Assembly: GCF_050320075.1 (NCBI RefSeq)
Contig: NZ_CP190018.1
Direction: 5' to 3' (one strand)
Source of the DNA: Escherichia coli
Lineage (GTDB): Bacteria; Pseudomonadota; Gammaproteobacteria; Enterobacterales; Enterobacteriaceae
DNA: 64,000 nt
Positions 13,145-64,000 of the stretch are shown here, piece after piece; the first letter of the stretch is position 1; every line of letters begins with the position of its first letter. The position numbers and the translations under genes were made by a program. Under the pieces are notes generated by a model that was not told the origin of the DNA, searched no databases, and saw only the letters and a list, made by a program, of their open reading frames with translations.

Positions 13145-13801
13145 TTGATCAACGTTCTACTTGTTGATGACCACGAACTGGTGCGCGCAGGGATACGACG
13201 CATTCTGGAAGATATAAAGGGTATAAAAGTCGTCGGTGAGGCATCGTGCGGTGAAGACGCCGTTAAGTGGTGCCGGGCAAATGCCGTTGACGTGGTGCTA
13301 ATGGACATGAGTATGCCGGGCATTGGCGGTCTTGAGGCGACGCGTAAAATCGCGCGTTCCACAGCTGATGTCAAAATCATCATGCTTACCGTCCATACAG
13401 AAAACCCTTTACCAGCGAAAGTCATGCAGGCCGGTGCTGCTGGCTACCTCAGCAAAGGCGCGGCTCCGCAGGAAGTCGTGAGTGCGATCCGTTCTGTCTA
13501 TTCAGGGCAGCGTTACATTGCTTCTGACATCGCTCAACAAATGGCGTTAAGCCAGATCGAACCAGAAAAAACAGAAAGCCCATTTGCCAGTTTGTCTGAA
13601 CGTGAATTGCAGATTATGCTGATGATCACCAAGGGCCAGAAGGTCAATGAGATCTCAGAACAGCTCAATCTCAGTCCGAAAACGGTGAACAGCTACCGCT
13701 ATCGTATGTTCAGTAAACTAAACATTCATGGCGATGTTGAGCTGACTCACCTGGCAATTCGCCATGGTCTGTGTAATGCGGAGACATTATCAAGTCAGTG
13801 A
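13145..13801 (+). CDS. uvrY: response regulator UvrY (TTG start)
   Basis: 218-aa receiver + LuxR HTH protein recognised as UvrY. Confidence 0.9.
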
Positions 13802-21017: not shown

Positions 21018-21683
21018 ATGAAAACGGGACCGTTAAACGAAAGTGAGTTGGAATGGCTGGACGATATTCTGACCAAATACAACACTGACCACGCCATTCT
21101 TGATGTGGCGGAGCTGGACGGTTTATTGACGGCGGTGTTGAGTTCTCCGCAAGAGATTGAACCGGCACAGTGGCTGGTTGCCGTGTGGGGTGGGGCTGAC
21201 TATGTGCCACGCTGGGCGTCAGAGAAAGAGATGACGCGCTTTATGAACCTGGCTTTTCAGCATATGGCTGATACCGCAGAGCGTCTGAACGAATTCCCGG
21301 AGCAGTTTGAGCCGTTATTCGGCTTGCGAGAAGTCGATGGCAGCGAGCTGACGATTGTTGAGGAGTGGTGCTTTGGCTATATGCGGGGCGTGGCACTTTC
21401 TGACTGGTCAACGTTGCCCGATTCGTTAAAACCAGCGCTGGAGGCGATTGCGCTGCACGGTACTGAGGAAAACTTCGAGCGGTTAGAGAAGATGTCGCCA
21501 GAAGCGTTTGAAGAGAGCGTAGATGCCATTCGACTGGCGGCGCTTGATCTACATGCGTACTGGATGGCGCATCCGCAGGAAAAAGCTGTTCAGCAACCGA
21601 TCAAAGCAGAAGAGAAACCGGGGCGTAATGATCCTTGCCCGTGCGGTAGTGGTAAGAAATTTAAGCAGTGCTGCCTGCATTAA
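21018..21683 (+). CDS. yecA: SEC-C motif protein YecA
   Basis: 221-aa ORF ending in the SEC-C metal-binding motif [13 protein letters not shown]. Confidence 0.9.
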
Positions 21684-59128: not shown

Positions 59129-59180
59129 CATCAAGGTCTAAATGCACTACATGGGCACCTAAACATATACATGTGATGTT

Positions 59181-59203
59181 GAGGTGTTAGAAAGGGGGCT
59201 GTT
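59181..59203 (-). terminator. hairpin downstream of the 306-aa minus-strand gene
   Basis: AGGGGGCTGTTCAGCCCCT inverted repeat immediately after the stop of 59219..60139. Confidence 0.35.
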
Positions 59204-59218
59204 CAGCCCCTGATAGAC

Positions 59219-60139
59219 TTAGTAATTATCCCTGACAACTTCATCATATCTTTCAATGAAGGTTAGTTGTTTATTACTTCCATTATAACTATCAACCCAT
59301 TTGTCTACAGCTTCATCGAATAGAAATAAAAAATCCGTATAATTTATATACACTACATTATCATAATATTGGGTTGGGTGACCTCTTTTACATACAGCAA
59401 TACTAAGACGTCTTTCTTTACCCTGAGTAACTTTGTGTGAATTAAGATTAGTCATGTGAAGCAATGAGTTCCTTAATTCATATAATTCGTCGGAAGTTAC
59501 TCCAAGTTTTTGTATATCTGAGTATGTATCTAACCAATTTTGAAAGACTCTTCTTTTGTTTCCAAACTCAATATAAGCTATAGTATCAATAAATGACATT
59601 AATAGCTTGAAGCTTGACAAGTAATGTTTTTTGTTAAACAGAAGCTTTATTGGTTCCATATGGTCATCATTAAGAAGTTCCTTAATGTGAAAACCATCAT
59701 CTTTCATATACTTATCAAGATAGTCTGGCAAGTCTTTTACACCTTCAATGTGATAGTTAGGTGTGTGCTTATTCCTTAATTGCTCTGACATTGATAACTG
59801 AATATCATATTGTAATTTGCCTTTAACAACGGGGGTGACTATAGCTAAAGGGTTTTCAGGTGCATTTTGAGCTTCTAATGCTAATTCAAACGGAGCAAAA
59901 GGATTACCAATCCGCAAATTTGCATTATATCTTTCAAGTGTCAATTTGTCATTTTCTAAAACAGAAGGGTGTATCCCATAAAATAAACGACAAGAAGCTA
60001 AGTCAATCTCCAAATTCCGCTTTAAAAAATCTAATTTTTGCGCATCATCGCCATCATGTTCGTGAGGTACTATTCCGGCATGTGTGATATGAACTCCATC
60101 AGGACTAAAGCAAAATATGTTGTAGATAATCTCTTTCAT
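59219..60139 (-). CDS. hypothetical protein, 306 aa, with RNxxxH (HEPN-like) motif; candidate Abi-type RNase (tentative)
   Basis: Long intact ORF in AT-rich DNA at the island edge; motif R223-N-S-L-L-H228 fits the HEPN R-x4-6-H consensus; no other recognisable domain. Confidence 0.65.
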   Translation of the reverse strand: MKEIIYNIFCFSPDGVHITHAGIVPHEHDGDDAQKLDFLKRNLEIDLASCRLFYGIHPSVLENDKLTLERYNANLRIGNPFAPFELALEAQNAPENPLAIVTPVVKGKLQYDIQLSMSEQLRNKHTPNYHIEGVKDLPDYLDKYMKDDGFHIKELLNDDHMEPIKLLFNKKHYLSSFKLLMSFIDTIAYIEFGNKRRVFQNWLDTYSDIQKLGVTSDELYELRNSLLHMTNLNSHKVTQGKERRLSIAVCKRGHPTQYYDNVVYINYTDFLFLFDEAVDKWVDSYNGSNKQLTFIERYDEVVRDNY

Positions 60140-61249
60140 ACCATTCTAACCTTCAGTGAAAATAAAGTTTTAACTATCATTAGATTATGAACAATCACAA
60201 TTGGCCTGTAAATAACAGGGCATAAACAGGTTCGTTTAGCTTGATTTTATCACTATAACTGTCTGATTTAACGGTAACTCACCAAGTATACACACAGTAA
60301 TTACACAATCCTGTTATTATGTAACTTATTGAAATATATAAATAATTTTTACATTCTTTGTTTGGGGTAAGCTGTGTAATGTTAGTCGTCCCTCTCCAGA
60401 CACTATATATAGTGCTATATACAGGACTATATAACGATATATAGATGTTTGGTCACATGGTATAACTATCAAACCACTTAACGATTTCCTACGTGAAAGT
60501 TAGAAAGTGATAGTTATAGTTACCTTGTCAAATCTTCGTAGTCCCTTCTTAAAAAATCGTGAAAGGTAATCTTGTTATCTATACAGAATCTACGTAGATG
60601 CTTCTTAGTGCGCAAAACAGCTATTATGTTAAAAACGCACTGTATACGTATCAGTACTGATTTATAAGGGTTTTGTGTATTGGCTGATAAGAGGCTATAC
60701 AGCACCTTGAGAGCATGTCTTCTAAGTCATTGACATATAAGGTCACAGAAGTTTGTAGCTGTTACAGAGAAAACTGGATAGGACTTCACAGAACTATAAA
60801 ATGTTACAGCTATTGATAGGTGAAATCTTCTTGATAGATGCTTTGAAGTGTGGTGAAGGCTTTTTGAGGTGGGGCTAAACAGATATCATGAAGAAAGTCA
60901 ATAGTTGATTCGGTTTATCGAATAAACCTCATAGATATTTTAAAATTCTGCAAAGGGGGTCACATAGCTGGTGTGACGGGTACTTAGCAGCTACAGACAT
61001 CTATCAGATATTTTTGAAGATTTTTAGAAGGGGAATTTGAAGAGGGGCTACTACGATTTTATAAAAATTTTCAGATTCTGAAAAGTTACTGTACAGAATA
61101 TGTACAGATATCTTTAAAGTATCTGTAAAAACTTTTAAGATAAAAGATAGATATCCCAGAAAGGATATCCGTTTAGAAAACCTATTAAGTATCTCTTAAA
61201 AGAGAGTAAACCTTGTCAAGAGTGATTGCAATAAAAATTTTTATTTCTT
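60140..61249. other. 1.1 kb AT-rich ORF-free region with clustered short repeats and palindromes (divergent control region, origin or ncRNA locus)
   Basis: No ORF above 61 aa; recurring TACAG/GATAG-containing motifs; palindrome GTCACAtagctggTGTGAC at ~60959..60977; CTATATATAG-type repeats at ~60400..60445. Confidence 0.5.
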
Positions 61250-61912
61250 ATGTCAATTGAGTGTATTTTAATCGGGAAACATCATGGGGGTTCTGATTAC
61301 TGGAGAACTCCATTTTTGTTATTTAAGAACTTACACCGTGAATTTATTTTCAGTCTGGATGGTGCTGCAACTAAGCACGATACGTTATTACCCCGCTTTA
61401 CGGATGATATTCACAATCAGTCATGGGATGGTGAACGGGTATTCTGTAACCCACCATACAGCGACACTAAAACATTCCTCGTAAAAGCGTCTGAGGCAGA
61501 TTTATCGGTATTCCTGATACCGTACCGACCCCAAACCATATACTGGCTTAAGCACATCTTCACAAACCCGCTTTGCCATGAAATCCGTATTCTTCATCGT
61601 GCAGTTAAATACCTTCCACCAGCAGGGCATAACAGGCTTACTATTAGGTCGCCGTTTCCAAGTGCAGTCGTTGTTTTTAAAAAAGAACCACGCAGGCATG
61701 AAATTACGCAGATGGTTTGCTGTGCTGATACATTGCTACCGTTAACCATCATTAACAGAGGAGGCTTGAGAGGAAGGCCCACCATTTACCCACCTGAGAC
61801 GCTCGACAGCTTCATAAAACTATACAGGCAAGGCAAACCCATTAAGTGCATTGCAGATGCTCTCAGAATGCCTCTGAGCACGTCATACAGGATTGCTCAA
61901 AGGTTGAGCTAG
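61250..61912 (+). CDS. phage Dam-like DNA N6-adenine methyltransferase with C-terminal HTH-like segment
   Basis: DYWRTPFLLF ... FSLDGAA ... CNPPYSD (motif IV N/DPPY) typical of phage N6-A MTases; C-terminal IKCIADALRMPLSTSYRIAQRL looks helix-turn-helix; start codon uncertain. Confidence 0.6.
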   Translation: MSIECILIGKHHGGSDYWRTPFLLFKNLHREFIFSLDGAATKHDTLLPRFTDDIHNQSWDGERVFCNPPYSDTKTFLVKASEADLSVFLIPYRPQTIYWLKHIFTNPLCHEIRILHRAVKYLPPAGHNRLTIRSPFPSAVVVFKKEPRRHEITQMVCCADTLLPLTIINRGGLRGRPTIYPPETLDSFIKLYRQGKPIKCIADALRMPLSTSYRIAQRLS

Positions 61913-62276
61913 AATTCTCATAAATATGGTCATTTACAAGACAGGTGATTTAGATATTAAGAGGTATCCCTGTGAACAATAAATGACCAATCAGTAATTA
62001 TCCTGTGAAATAATTGTTGCAATTTATAATCACACATGGTATAGTTTCATAGTGGACTGATAAAAAAGTTCATGTCTTGAAGTGGTAACACTTGGGGAGG
62101 TGTCAGATGATTGACGTATATTAACCTCTCATTCATGGTAATACCTCAGCGTTTTAATCATCGTACTGTTTCAGGCATGGACTTCTTTATCAGTCCATCA
62201 ATCCCCCAGATATTTTAATCACACAGGCTAATCGGTTTTATCCGGTTGGCCTTTTCACGTATGAGGTAATTTATGA

Positions 62277-63245
62277 ATGAAAAAAGAAACTAATGCTTTT
62301 ATTATGGTAGATAAACGAGTTGCACAATTCCCTAAAACATTAAAGCCAATTGACCGCTTGGTATATTTCACTATGCTGGATGGTGCTGATTATTACGAAT
62401 CTAAGTTCGGGAGATACGCACCAAGTATTGACTATTTGATGGTTATGTCTGGTGCTACACGTAATACAGTTATTGATTCACTTAAGAGACTTGAGTCACA
62501 CAGACTTATCGAAAAGACCAATGTAAAGGGTCAGCAAAGTATTTTTAAAGTATTCACGTTGGATGAGCGTCCAGAGGTCTTATCAGAACCTACCCTTGAT
62601 GAGCGTCGTAGAGCTAAATTATCAGGTCAACCAGAATCTGACAGTAACCCAACCAAAAATTGGTTACCTACCCAACCAGAATTTGGTTACCTACCTAACC
62701 AGAATTTGGTTACATGTAATACTGAATATAAAGACAAAAATATAAATACTGAAGAAGAAAGACTAAAAGGGAACTTTGAAGAAGAATCTCTTAAGAAGGG
62801 AGCTTCGCTCTGTGATTCACATGAATGTGATATTAAAGAAGATGACTTTCTTTCTTTGGATGAATTAAATGATTTTCTCTCTATGAATGAATCTGGCCTT
62901 GATAGTGAAGCTACTAAAGAGGCTGTTAAAAAGGAAGATAAAATCTCTGATGTGAATATCGATAGTGACCATAAAAACACACAGTGCCCCGCCACTGATG
63001 ATGAGATGGACCCCTTCGATGATTACCTTGATGAAGAGTCAGAGCGTGAAAAAGCCATTAAGAGGGTAGAGAAGAAAAAGAGATTCGAGCTTGCAAGACA
63101 AAAGAACAAAGTATCGGGTTTAGACCCATTCGATGACAGTGACGATGATGACTTTTCTTTCACACCAAGAAAGAAACAAACTCAGGATGACAAGAAGCAA
63201 AAAATTAAACCGAAGATGTATTTTGCTGGTGGAGGTATGCGCTAA
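62277..63245 (+). CDS. winged-helix DNA-binding protein with long acidic low-complexity tail (replication-initiator/regulator-like)
   Basis: N-terminal ~95 aa resemble phage Rep/replisome-organiser winged helix; C-terminal two-thirds D/E/K-rich with a twice-repeated DPFDD motif. Confidence 0.55.
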   Translation: MKKETNAFIMVDKRVAQFPKTLKPIDRLVYFTMLDGADYYESKFGRYAPSIDYLMVMSGATRNTVIDSLKRLESHRLIEKTNVKGQQSIFKVFTLDERPEVLSEPTLDERRRAKLSGQPESDSNPTKNWLPTQPEFGYLPNQNLVTCNTEYKDKNINTEEERLKGNFEEESLKKGASLCDSHECDIKEDDFLSLDELNDFLSMNESGLDSEATKEAVKKEDKISDVNIDSDHKNTQCPATDDEMDPFDDYLDEESEREKAIKRVEKKKRFELARQKNKVSGLDPFDDSDDDDFSFTPRKKQTQDDKKQKIKPKMYFAGGGMR

Positions 63246-63541
63246 TGAAAGAATATCACGGTGAAAAGAGATACAAAGATTACCTGTTAAAGCGTTATAG
63301 CATTTCTCGTGAAGGCCACTTAATGAAGGATACTCACGGGGAAGTTTACCGGATTAGACCGAAGAAAGAAGGGAGGGATTATTTCTTTTACGATGGTGTG
63401 ACAGATTTAAAGATTGATGCTTTGAAGTTTGCGGCGCTGTATCATTATGATATCTGGGACTCAGTCCACCAGCTACGATTAAAAGACGGTGACCCCGGTA
63501 ATCTGAGGGCCACCAATATTATCAAGGGAAAGTGCCGGTAA
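63245..63541 (+). CDS. small HNH-like endonuclease-domain protein (tentative)
   Basis: 98-aa ORF translationally coupled (ATGA overlap) to the upstream gene; VHQLRLKDGDPGNLRATNI resembles the HNH_3 H-x-DG-x-NL-x-T pattern. Confidence 0.4.
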   Translation: MKEYHGEKRYKDYLLKRYSISREGHLMKDTHGEVYRIRPKKEGRDYFFYDGVTDLKIDALKFAALYHYDIWDSVHQLRLKDGDPGNLRATNIIKGKCR

Positions 63542-63799
63542 GTCCACCAGCTATTTATTTATTGAAATCTCTATCTCAACACGAAGAAGTTTAAGTCGAA
63601 TTGTAAGCTTTGTCTTTTTTGTAATGACTCGATTCATAACGCAAAACACCAATAGCACAATAAATACCGCAAAGCCCAACGAGCTAAAACGATGAGATTC
63701 AATAATTGCTGTGAAAAAATCATGCATTAATTTTCCTTTTGCGAAAGGAAACAGCACCTGTATCAGCCCCTATAACCATAATATCATGTAAATGAGATG

Positions 63800-63828
63800 T
63801 TGACAATATGTTAAATAAATGTTATGAT
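63800..63828 (+). promoter_or_regulatory. near-consensus sigma70 promoter
   Basis: TTGACA-N17-TATGAT followed by AAGGAG Shine-Dalgarno and ATG at 63866. Confidence 0.5.
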
Positions 63829-63865
63829 TGTAGTATGAGTAAGAGATTTAAGGAGATTTTTACAA

Positions 63866-64000
63866 TGACTCACACAGTTACGCGCCTTTTGCCAGAGGCA
63901 TTTGAACGACTGGCAGCAATCAAAGCCAAATATCCCGATATGAAGCACACAGCGCTTGTTGGAGAGCTTTTAAAAGAGTCGGTAACCCTGACCCCTTTCG
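63866..64000 (+). CDS. ribbon-helix-helix-like DNA-binding protein, 5' portion only (runs off window end)
   Basis: MTHTVTRLLPEAFERLAAIKAKYPDMKHTALVGELLKE has the beta-strand then helix pattern of RHH/CopG/antitoxin-type proteins; strong promoter and SD upstream. Confidence 0.4.

Follow-up and report, generated by a model that had tools for sequence, protein, structure and literature searches.

The right end of a 64,000-nucleotide stretch of Escherichia coli DNA (hereafter the window) raises the question of what is controlled by a near-consensus promoter that stands between a small hydrophobic open reading frame (ORF) and a gene whose first 45 codons, cut off by the window edge, encode a ribbon-helix-helix (RHH)-like unit. 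An earlier note, made from the letters of the window alone, took this gene to encode an RHH protein of the type common among antitoxins and plasmid or phage repressors, with a toxin or regulated cargo gene possibly following just past position 64000, and the small ORF a possibly spurious neighbor convergent with it. As judged from its sequence and that of its relatives, the locus appears to belong with known RHH regulators that bind repeats at divergent control regions, the new element being the single-chain tandem form of the regulator and its setting in a probable phage satellite.

A conserved promoter precedes the RHH gene

The consensus promoter named in the earlier note is present as described (Table 1), and a TG at −15/−14 gives it an extended −10 element. 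Two sites that match the consensus at 11 of 12 positions were found in a scan of the 64-kb window, against about one expected, and only this one has an extended −10. Since ~7% of shuffled windows also contain an 11/12 site with an extended −10, the match on its own is only mildly unusual. The promoter is nonetheless convincing because the TTGACA hexamer and its surroundings are conserved: in an alignment of nine diverged relatives, TTGACA, the 60 nt around it and the ATG of the RHH gene are invariant. We conclude from these comparisons that the rightward promoter is genuine and conserved. The AAGGAG Shine-Dalgarno (SD) element that had been noted ahead of the ORF likewise stands, and the control-region alignment shows that either AAGGAG or AAGAAGGA is kept in the relatives. 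An in-frame ATG at 63808 was also considered as the start of the RHH gene and was rejected because indels of 1–2 nt in relatives destroy the upstream frame.

Table 1 Features of the divergent control region and of the second boxed promoter (window coordinates unless stated otherwise)
Feature	Position	Strand	Details
Terminator-like hairpin between the 98-aa gene (+) and the small ORF (−)	63534..63551	.	7 pairs, 4 of them G-C
Small ORF, predicted 58-aa single-pass membrane protein MHDFFTAIIESHRFSSLGFAVFIVLLVFCVMNRVITKKTKLTIRLKLLRVEIEISINK	63551..63727	−	Stop codon included
Leader hairpin UUUCCUUU-CGCA-AAAGGAAA	63732..63751	−	3' arm is the small-ORF Shine-Dalgarno
12-mer CCTGTATCAGCC	63758..63769	−	Predicted first 12 nt of the leftward transcript; nearly invariant
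Leftward promoter, TTGTCA (63806..63801) + 17 nt + TATTAT (63783..63778)	63778..63806	−	10/12; extended −10 TG; conserved in relatives
Four boxes, TGTAA (63787), TGTTG (63798), TGTTA (63809), TGTTA (63820)	63787..63824	+	11-nt spacing
Rightward promoter, TTGACA (63800-63805) + 17 nt + TATGAT (63823-63828)	63800..63828	+	11/12; extended −10
Shine-Dalgarno AAGGAG	63850-63855	+	9 nt 5' of ATG 63865
RHH gene, first 45 codons of a 96-aa gene, repeat 1	63865..64000	+	Ends at window-equivalent 64155 in an identical record
Second boxed promoter, TTGACA-17-GATGAT with TG	Boxes at L001 16144-16170, beyond the window		10/12

The 96-aa protein is predicted to hold two RHH repeats in one chain

The full ORF, completed from an identical E. 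coli record that extends past the window edge, encodes 96 aa. In the AlphaFold2 model of this protein, which is of moderate confidence (pLDDT 60.5, pTM 0.55), the first 45 residues form a β-α-α unit (strand 3–7, helices 10–22 and 28–36), in agreement with their RHH-like appearance in the earlier note. A second such unit (strand 57–61, helices 62–75 and 79–94) is joined to the first by a disordered linker (residues 38–55). In the model, the strands of the two units pair as an antiparallel ribbon, which defines the RHH fold, and the arrangement of both repeats in tandem within one chain is that of the TraY family. The model suggests, with moderate confidence, that the protein consists of two RHH repeats that form a built-in pseudo-dimer. 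Its best structural matches were F-plasmid TraY (PDB 9f0x) and single-chain Arc, and a Foldseek comparison with viral models returned full-length matches to archaeal-virus RHH proteins of ~100 aa.

Searches with the 96-aa sequence found no curated RHH family above threshold in Pfam, PHROGs, NCBIfam or PADLOC and no match to Pfam TraY, and a sequence search of the PDB returned nothing relevant. The sub-threshold Pfam matches were Omega_Repress (E 0.01–0.13; 13 bits vs. a cut-off of 33.3) and a NikA-like family (E 0.078). Profile comparison of the two halves of the protein aligned TRLLPEAFERL with IRITTDQLELL in register, with an E value of 0.089 that is not significant. Relatives formed 42 clusters in a search of 5.8 billion proteins, and when 1.8 billion representative proteins were searched exhaustively with a profile, eight matches were obtained, all of them from the island family described below. 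These searches place the 96-aa protein in a narrow orphan family, which also has members in Shigella. The gene was found in all ten island loci examined, and the predicted DNA-reading strands (HTVTR and IRIT) hardly vary even where overall identity falls to 37%. Few natural RHH proteins are single-chain tandems, and here one heads the principal operon of a mobile island. Among the closest known proteins, AvtR of Acidianus filamentous virus 6 comes from an archaeal virus and is unrelated in sequence to the 96-aa protein, and single-chain Arc is an engineered protein, unlike the natural single chain described here.

The neighboring gene does not encode a recognizable toxin

The RHH gene is followed by a gene for a 141-aa protein, with a 4-nt overlap of the two genes (an ATGA-type start/stop junction). 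This is the position at which a toxin gene had been anticipated, but searches of Pfam, PHROGs, PADLOC and NCBIfam with the 141-aa protein gave no toxin or defence family, the only signal being a weak C-terminal helix-turn-helix (HTH). Its structural model (pLDDT 71) matches only HTH domains, namely those of Tn3 resolvase, TrpR, small terminase and sigma region 4. Moreover, the same position in other islands is occupied by genes for 73 and 71 aa, for 71 aa, for 90 and 66 aa, or by no called gene, and the RHH gene is kept throughout. A type II toxin-antitoxin module, in which an RHH antitoxin gene would precede its toxin gene, would account for the RHH fold and for the 4-nt overlap. Nevertheless, the antitoxin reading fails because the next gene encodes an HTH protein without a toxin fold and varies between islands, and the 96-aa tandem single chain differs from the short dimeric RHH proteins known as antitoxins. 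We rejected this explanation, which we regard as highly improbable.

The small ORF is a conserved gene with its own promoter

The minus-strand ORF extends over 63551–63757, and its conserved start is the ATG at 63727, which gives 58 aa, and not the GTG at 63757. The membrane segment, LGFAVFIVLLVFCVMNRVI, covers residues 17–35 of the 58-aa protein and has a Kyte-Doolittle 19-residue mean of 2.5; the predicted topology places the N-terminus outside and the C-terminus inside. Directly upstream of the RHH gene, homologues of the small ORF are encoded on the strand opposite to it and can be sorted into four sequence types with ~50–55% DNA identity. All four start with ATG, encode 56–62 aa, and have in common the motif ES(H/Q)RF, a membrane segment with a 19-residue hydropathy of 2.2–2.6 and a tail of alternating charged and hydrophobic residues. 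The dN/dS ratio is 0.18–0.35 in every comparison with unsaturated synonymous sites, which indicates purifying selection. Conservation of four diverged types under such selection removes the earlier suspicion that the ORF might be spurious; on comparative grounds it is a real gene for a single-pass membrane protein. The gene is annotated by NCBI PGAP in some genomes (WP_000506009.1) and belongs to an orphan family present only in these islands, in Escherichia, Shigella and Citrobacter.

The orientation given in the earlier note needs to be revised: the small ORF is not convergent but divergent with respect to the RHH gene, back to back with it and served by a promoter of its own, and it converges only with the upstream 98-aa gene (63245–63541). 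The −35 hexamers of the leftward and rightward promoters, both of the sigma-70 type, overlap by 5 bp. Transcription is predicted to start near 63771 on the minus strand and near 63835 on the plus strand. As inferred from the geometry of the overlap, polymerase footprints on the two promoters must therefore collide, and RNA polymerase can probably occupy only one of them at once.

The 12-mer at the predicted start of the leftward transcript carries a single substitution, in L003, among nine aligned control regions. Its 9-nt core, TGTATCAGC, is also kept in L004, and the whole 12-mer has one copy in the island locus and none in phage Felix O1, which is discussed below. The hairpin between the 98-aa gene and the small ORF pairs best, in this sequence, on the minus-strand RNA, and the same terminator-like hairpin (GCTGGTG...CCACCAGC) was also found in L002, L004 and L007. 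In the leader of the small ORF, a hairpin over the SD or AUG is predicted in all five sequence types.

These leader hairpins bear on an alternative explanation, in which the small ORF would encode a type I toxin, a membrane-damaging protein whose translation is held off by the SD hairpin and an antisense RNA. In its favor, the protein is small, hydrophobic and conserved, and in each sequence type the SD or AUG lies within a hairpin arm, but in none of the five types is the hairpin more stable than shuffled sequence (z −0.15 to −1.15). An antisense partner for the leader was sought among overlapping promoters and by pairing in trans with the ~450-nt transcript predicted from the second promoter (see below), and none was found: no antisense promoter overlaps the gene, and the transcript pairs with the leader no better than shuffles. 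An Rfam scan of the whole island returned chance-level matches only. Moreover, the small ORF has no match to any toxin or defence family, and 58 aa with a long charged C-terminal tail make it bigger than most type I toxins. We consider a type I toxin quite unlikely. A role in exclusion or helper interaction is favored instead, since the gene belongs to a resident element, has a promoter and a terminator of its own and encodes a small membrane protein; in our opinion the small protein is most likely made while the island is resident and acts, for example, in phage exclusion or in interaction with a helper phage.

As a separate observation, the control region (63693–63824) is a recombination joint in loci L015–L020, at which the types of the small ORF and of the RHH gene enter new combinations: a type-B small ORF is paired with a type-A RHH gene in L015 and L020.

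TGTTR boxes recur at a second promoter

The four boxes listed in Table 1 cover the leftward spacer, both −35 hexamers, the rightward spacer and the rightward −10. They were noticed by eye and then tested by pattern search, a generic repeat finder having missed boxes of only 5 nt. The three-box pattern, TGTTR-N6-TGTTR-N6-TGTTR, has a single match in the 64-kb window, and none of 100 shuffles contains it. In the 27-kb locus L001, which extends beyond the window, it was found only at the first (rightward) promoter and at a second promoter 1.3 kb downstream of it, which precedes the tape-measure/baseplate operon. The third box of the second promoter is its TGTTGACA, and the promoter lies at the start of a 570-nt gap between genes. 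Among the ten island loci, five (L001, L002, L003, L005 and L006) have the three-box pattern at the first promoter, and eight (these five and L008–L010) have the boxes of the second promoter; the first promoter of L008–L010 has a two-box version upstream of its −35. The positions of the boxes are invariant although the flanking genes drop to ~50% nucleotide identity.

A single-chain pseudo-dimer is asymmetric, and therefore a non-palindromic site is to be expected, with direct repeats as its operator. No covariation between the RHH protein and the boxes was detected, because both are invariant. The 141-aa HTH protein can be excluded as the common reader of the boxes because it is absent from islands that keep them.

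Several further elements were observed around the second promoter. A conserved hairpin with a T-run is located right at the predicted transcript start and shows compensatory changes in four of its nine pairs, and a second terminator-like hairpin (L001 16361–16381, beyond the window) follows on the 3' side. The region L001 16144–16637 contains a conserved non-coding leader of ~450 nt ahead of the genes for a 234-aa protein, a 72-aa protein, the tape-measure protein and the baseplate protein. Such a layout is reminiscent of late operons that are gated by antitermination. A hydrophobic micro-ORF of 25 aa, MGLIIAWTLLGLFVGCWVGSTVNRN (L001 16066–16143), lies immediately ahead of the second box set and overlaps the stop codon of the 107-aa gene; it is unannotated and is kept at 22–25 aa in most island types.

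The locus lies in an island linked to Felix O1-type phages

The last 3 kb of the window are 100% identical to E. coli YZLc1-3 (NZ_CP123240.1), and relatives were found in 164 of 5,426 complete E. coli genomes (~3%), in all cases on the chromosome. This end of the window is part of a 12.2-kb island that splits yecE, of which the left 4.9 kb lie in the window (59132–64000) and the remainder continues to L001 22365. In NZ_CP123240.1, the RHH gene is followed by the genes for the 141-aa and 107-aa proteins, the 570-nt gap, the genes for the 234-aa and 72-aa proteins, and then those for a tape-measure protein (710 aa), a Dit-like baseplate protein (257 aa) and a large serine recombinase (507 aa). 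In E. coli, E. albertii and Citrobacter, sister islands that share this backbone were found at a minimum of three further chromosomal sites. A 322-aa winged-helix protein encoded upstream of the control region matches phage replication-initiator families (PHROG 270, E 1.7e-7). As is usual for satellites, the island is compact and integrated, has its own integrase and a predicted replication initiator, and lacks a full virion set, its tail genes being only two. Relaxase or transfer genes were not found in the island, phage and plasmid collections had no megablast match to the region, and blastn of the control region and RHH operon against phages returned nothing. Among IMG/VR viral contigs there were only four loci, all cut off at contig edges.

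The two tail genes and two non-coding segments provide the specific genetic link to a helper phage that characterizes satellites. The Dit-like baseplate protein is 72.5% identical to the product of Felix O1 ORF68 (80% at the DNA level), and the island tape-measure protein is 28–39% identical to that of ORF67, the tape-measure gene that adjoins ORF68. The island genes (L001 17673–20742, beyond the window) thus correspond to neighbors in the phage. The matching phage records number 299. Felix O1-type phages of Escherichia, Salmonella, Shigella and Citrobacter make up most of them, and Erwinia phages and others are more distant matches. Of the non-coding segments, the one at window positions 60934–61096 is ~70% identical to non-coding Felix O1 positions 13289–13452, and that at 61132–61189 is 86% identical to non-coding positions 21578–21633. 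Together they match 254 phage records, almost all of Felix O1-type phages, and may have been copied from sites that act in cis in the helper, for packaging or replication or as promoters. These similarities point to virulent Felix O1-type myoviruses as the helper or target, and the island appears to be a probable satellite of such phages, similar to the phage-inducible island PLE. We found no published link between Felix O1-type phages and a satellite, in a searchable literature that is incomplete and leaves novelty unproven.

The boxes themselves recur in the phage. A gene-free stretch of Felix O1 (12.77–13.75 kb) holds an array of at least 13 TGTTA(A/G) boxes at 11-nt spacing and in both orientations; two-box matches in the whole phage number 18 vs. 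0.87 expected, and 13 of them fall in this stretch. The 2010 genome paper reports short terminal repeats of unmapped position and does not describe the box array (PMC3185647). Searches of Felix O1 found no RHH homologue (the best hmmsearch match, E 0.019, is unconvincing), and a Pfam scan of the genes that flank the array assigned them to no family.

Since the boxes are common to island and phage, either the helper is a second target of the RHH protein or the island promoters are read by a phage protein. The second possibility belongs to a rival explanation in which the TGTTR boxes are read by another protein, from a Felix O1-type helper or the ~105-aa protein of the island, so that the boxed promoters would sense infection and the tandem RHH protein would have a different target. 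Because Felix O1 has a box array at the same spacing but no RHH homologue, a phage protein may be the natural ligand of the boxes, and other non-coding segments of the phage have also been copied by the island. L004 and L007 keep the RHH gene with neither TTGACA nor boxes at the first-promoter position, and the ~105-aa protein, which is encoded in the same operon in all islands, has a conserved β-α-α-like core and an RHH-looking C-terminus. Nevertheless, Felix O1 yielded no candidate for a protein that binds the boxes, sequence searches gave no RHH match for the ~105-aa protein, and a phage protein placed over the −35 to −10 region would shut the island operon upon infection, which is counter-intuitive. 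We regard reading of the boxes by another protein, and with it a different target for the tandem RHH protein, as possible but doubtful.

Proposed control of the two boxed promoters

The explanation that we prefer, and which we hold at about even confidence, is that RHH monomers bound to the boxes repress the promoter of their own gene and also regulate the second promoter, within the two-way control region of a satellite-like island. Both the binding of the RHH protein to the boxes and the direction of regulation are inferred. The leftward promoter would give a short mRNA for the 58-aa single-pass inner-membrane protein, and the near-consensus rightward promoter would transcribe an operon of small DNA-binding proteins with the 96-aa tandem RHH protein first. 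One RHH monomer would occupy each 11-nt-spaced TGTTR box, so that monomers lie side by side on one face of the DNA, and the resulting train over the −35, spacer and −10 would impose negative autoregulation on the rightward promoter. The same protein would also act on the second boxed promoter, ahead of the tape-measure/baseplate operon.

The closest structural precedent is F-plasmid TraY, a monomeric tandem RHH protein of which three monomers form a train over ~30 bp (PMC12117103). The 96-aa protein shares with TraY the tandem RHH arrangement in one chain, but has no sequence similarity to it, and the island has no relaxase, oriT or conjugation genes. The TraY sites at oriT comprise two direct repeats and one inverted repeat, whereas the island boxes are all direct repeats and are located at promoters. 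The resemblance to TraY nonetheless suggests another rival explanation, in which the tandem RHH protein is mainly an accessory factor of DNA processing, as TraY is at oriT, and bends or marks DNA for packaging, replication or interference at the helper array, with transcriptional control being secondary. It is in keeping with this that the best structural match is a relaxosome accessory protein, that the helper box array adjoins a segment copied by the island, and that the terminal repeats reported for Felix O1 are unmapped (PMC3185647). However, exact 11-nt-spaced boxes occur in the island only at the two promoters, where they overlap promoter elements, and neither the island ends nor the phage-copied region contain exact boxes. 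A primarily DNA-processing role, including any bending or marking of DNA, is in our judgment unlikely.

Control by RHH proteins bound to short direct repeats is known from plasmids. ParR at parC of plasmid R1 and the Omega repressor of pSM19035 bind cooperatively to such repeats (11-bp iterons in parC and 7-bp heptads for Omega), which overlap their own promoters and lead to autoregulation. Both act as dimers of chains with one repeat each, within partition systems that include a ParM or ParA partner. The island has no partner of the ParM/ParA type, and its only sequence link to these proteins is the sub-threshold Omega_Repress match mentioned above. Back-to-back promoters that separate a leftward maintenance gene from a rightward operon are also found in the stl/str region of SaPIs and in the control regions of temperate phages. 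The rightward operon of the island is likewise led by a small DNA-binding protein, but its leftward gene encodes a 58-aa membrane protein and not a repressor.

Felix O1-type phages are widely used in typing and biocontrol of Salmonella and E. coli. If the islands restrict or exploit Felix O1-like phages, they would be relevant to phage therapy and biocontrol. An autoregulated RHH repressor alone would be routine; here, the likely operator consists of direct repeats one helical turn apart that recur at the tail-gene operon and in the putative helper array, and the shared boxes connect the regulation of the satellite to helper DNA in a concrete, testable way. A broader and tentative interpretation, on which we would place well under even weight, is that the island family is an undescribed satellite of virulent Felix O1-type phages in Escherichia, Shigella and Citrobacter, with the boxes as shared cis signals and the RHH protein reading both genomes. 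Equally tentatively, the protein would time the tape-measure/baseplate operon of the satellite and interfere with the helper by targeting its array, possibly a terminal or packaging region. A close parallel is PLE of Vibrio cholerae, a chromosomal satellite of the virulent myovirus ICP1 with a large serine recombinase and a replication initiator (PMC7145576). The island is in the same size range, has a large serine recombinase and a predicted replication initiator of its own, and is associated with virulent myoviruses. No sequence relationship between the two was detected, however, and the island differs in carrying copies of the tape-measure gene, the adjacent baseplate gene and non-coding segments of its helper, whose role in mobilization is putative.

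Other genes of the island

At the left end of the island, a 306-aa gene (59219–60139, minus strand) differs between islands; searches of Pfam, PADLOC and NCBIfam gave it no family, and cargo or defence is a possible function. The genes upstream of the control region (61250–61912 and 62277–63541) include one for a Dam-type adenine methyltransferase fused to a resolvase-like HTH. The C-terminus of the 98-aa protein, KDGDPGNLRATN, resembles a degenerate HNH_3 motif, as judged by eye.
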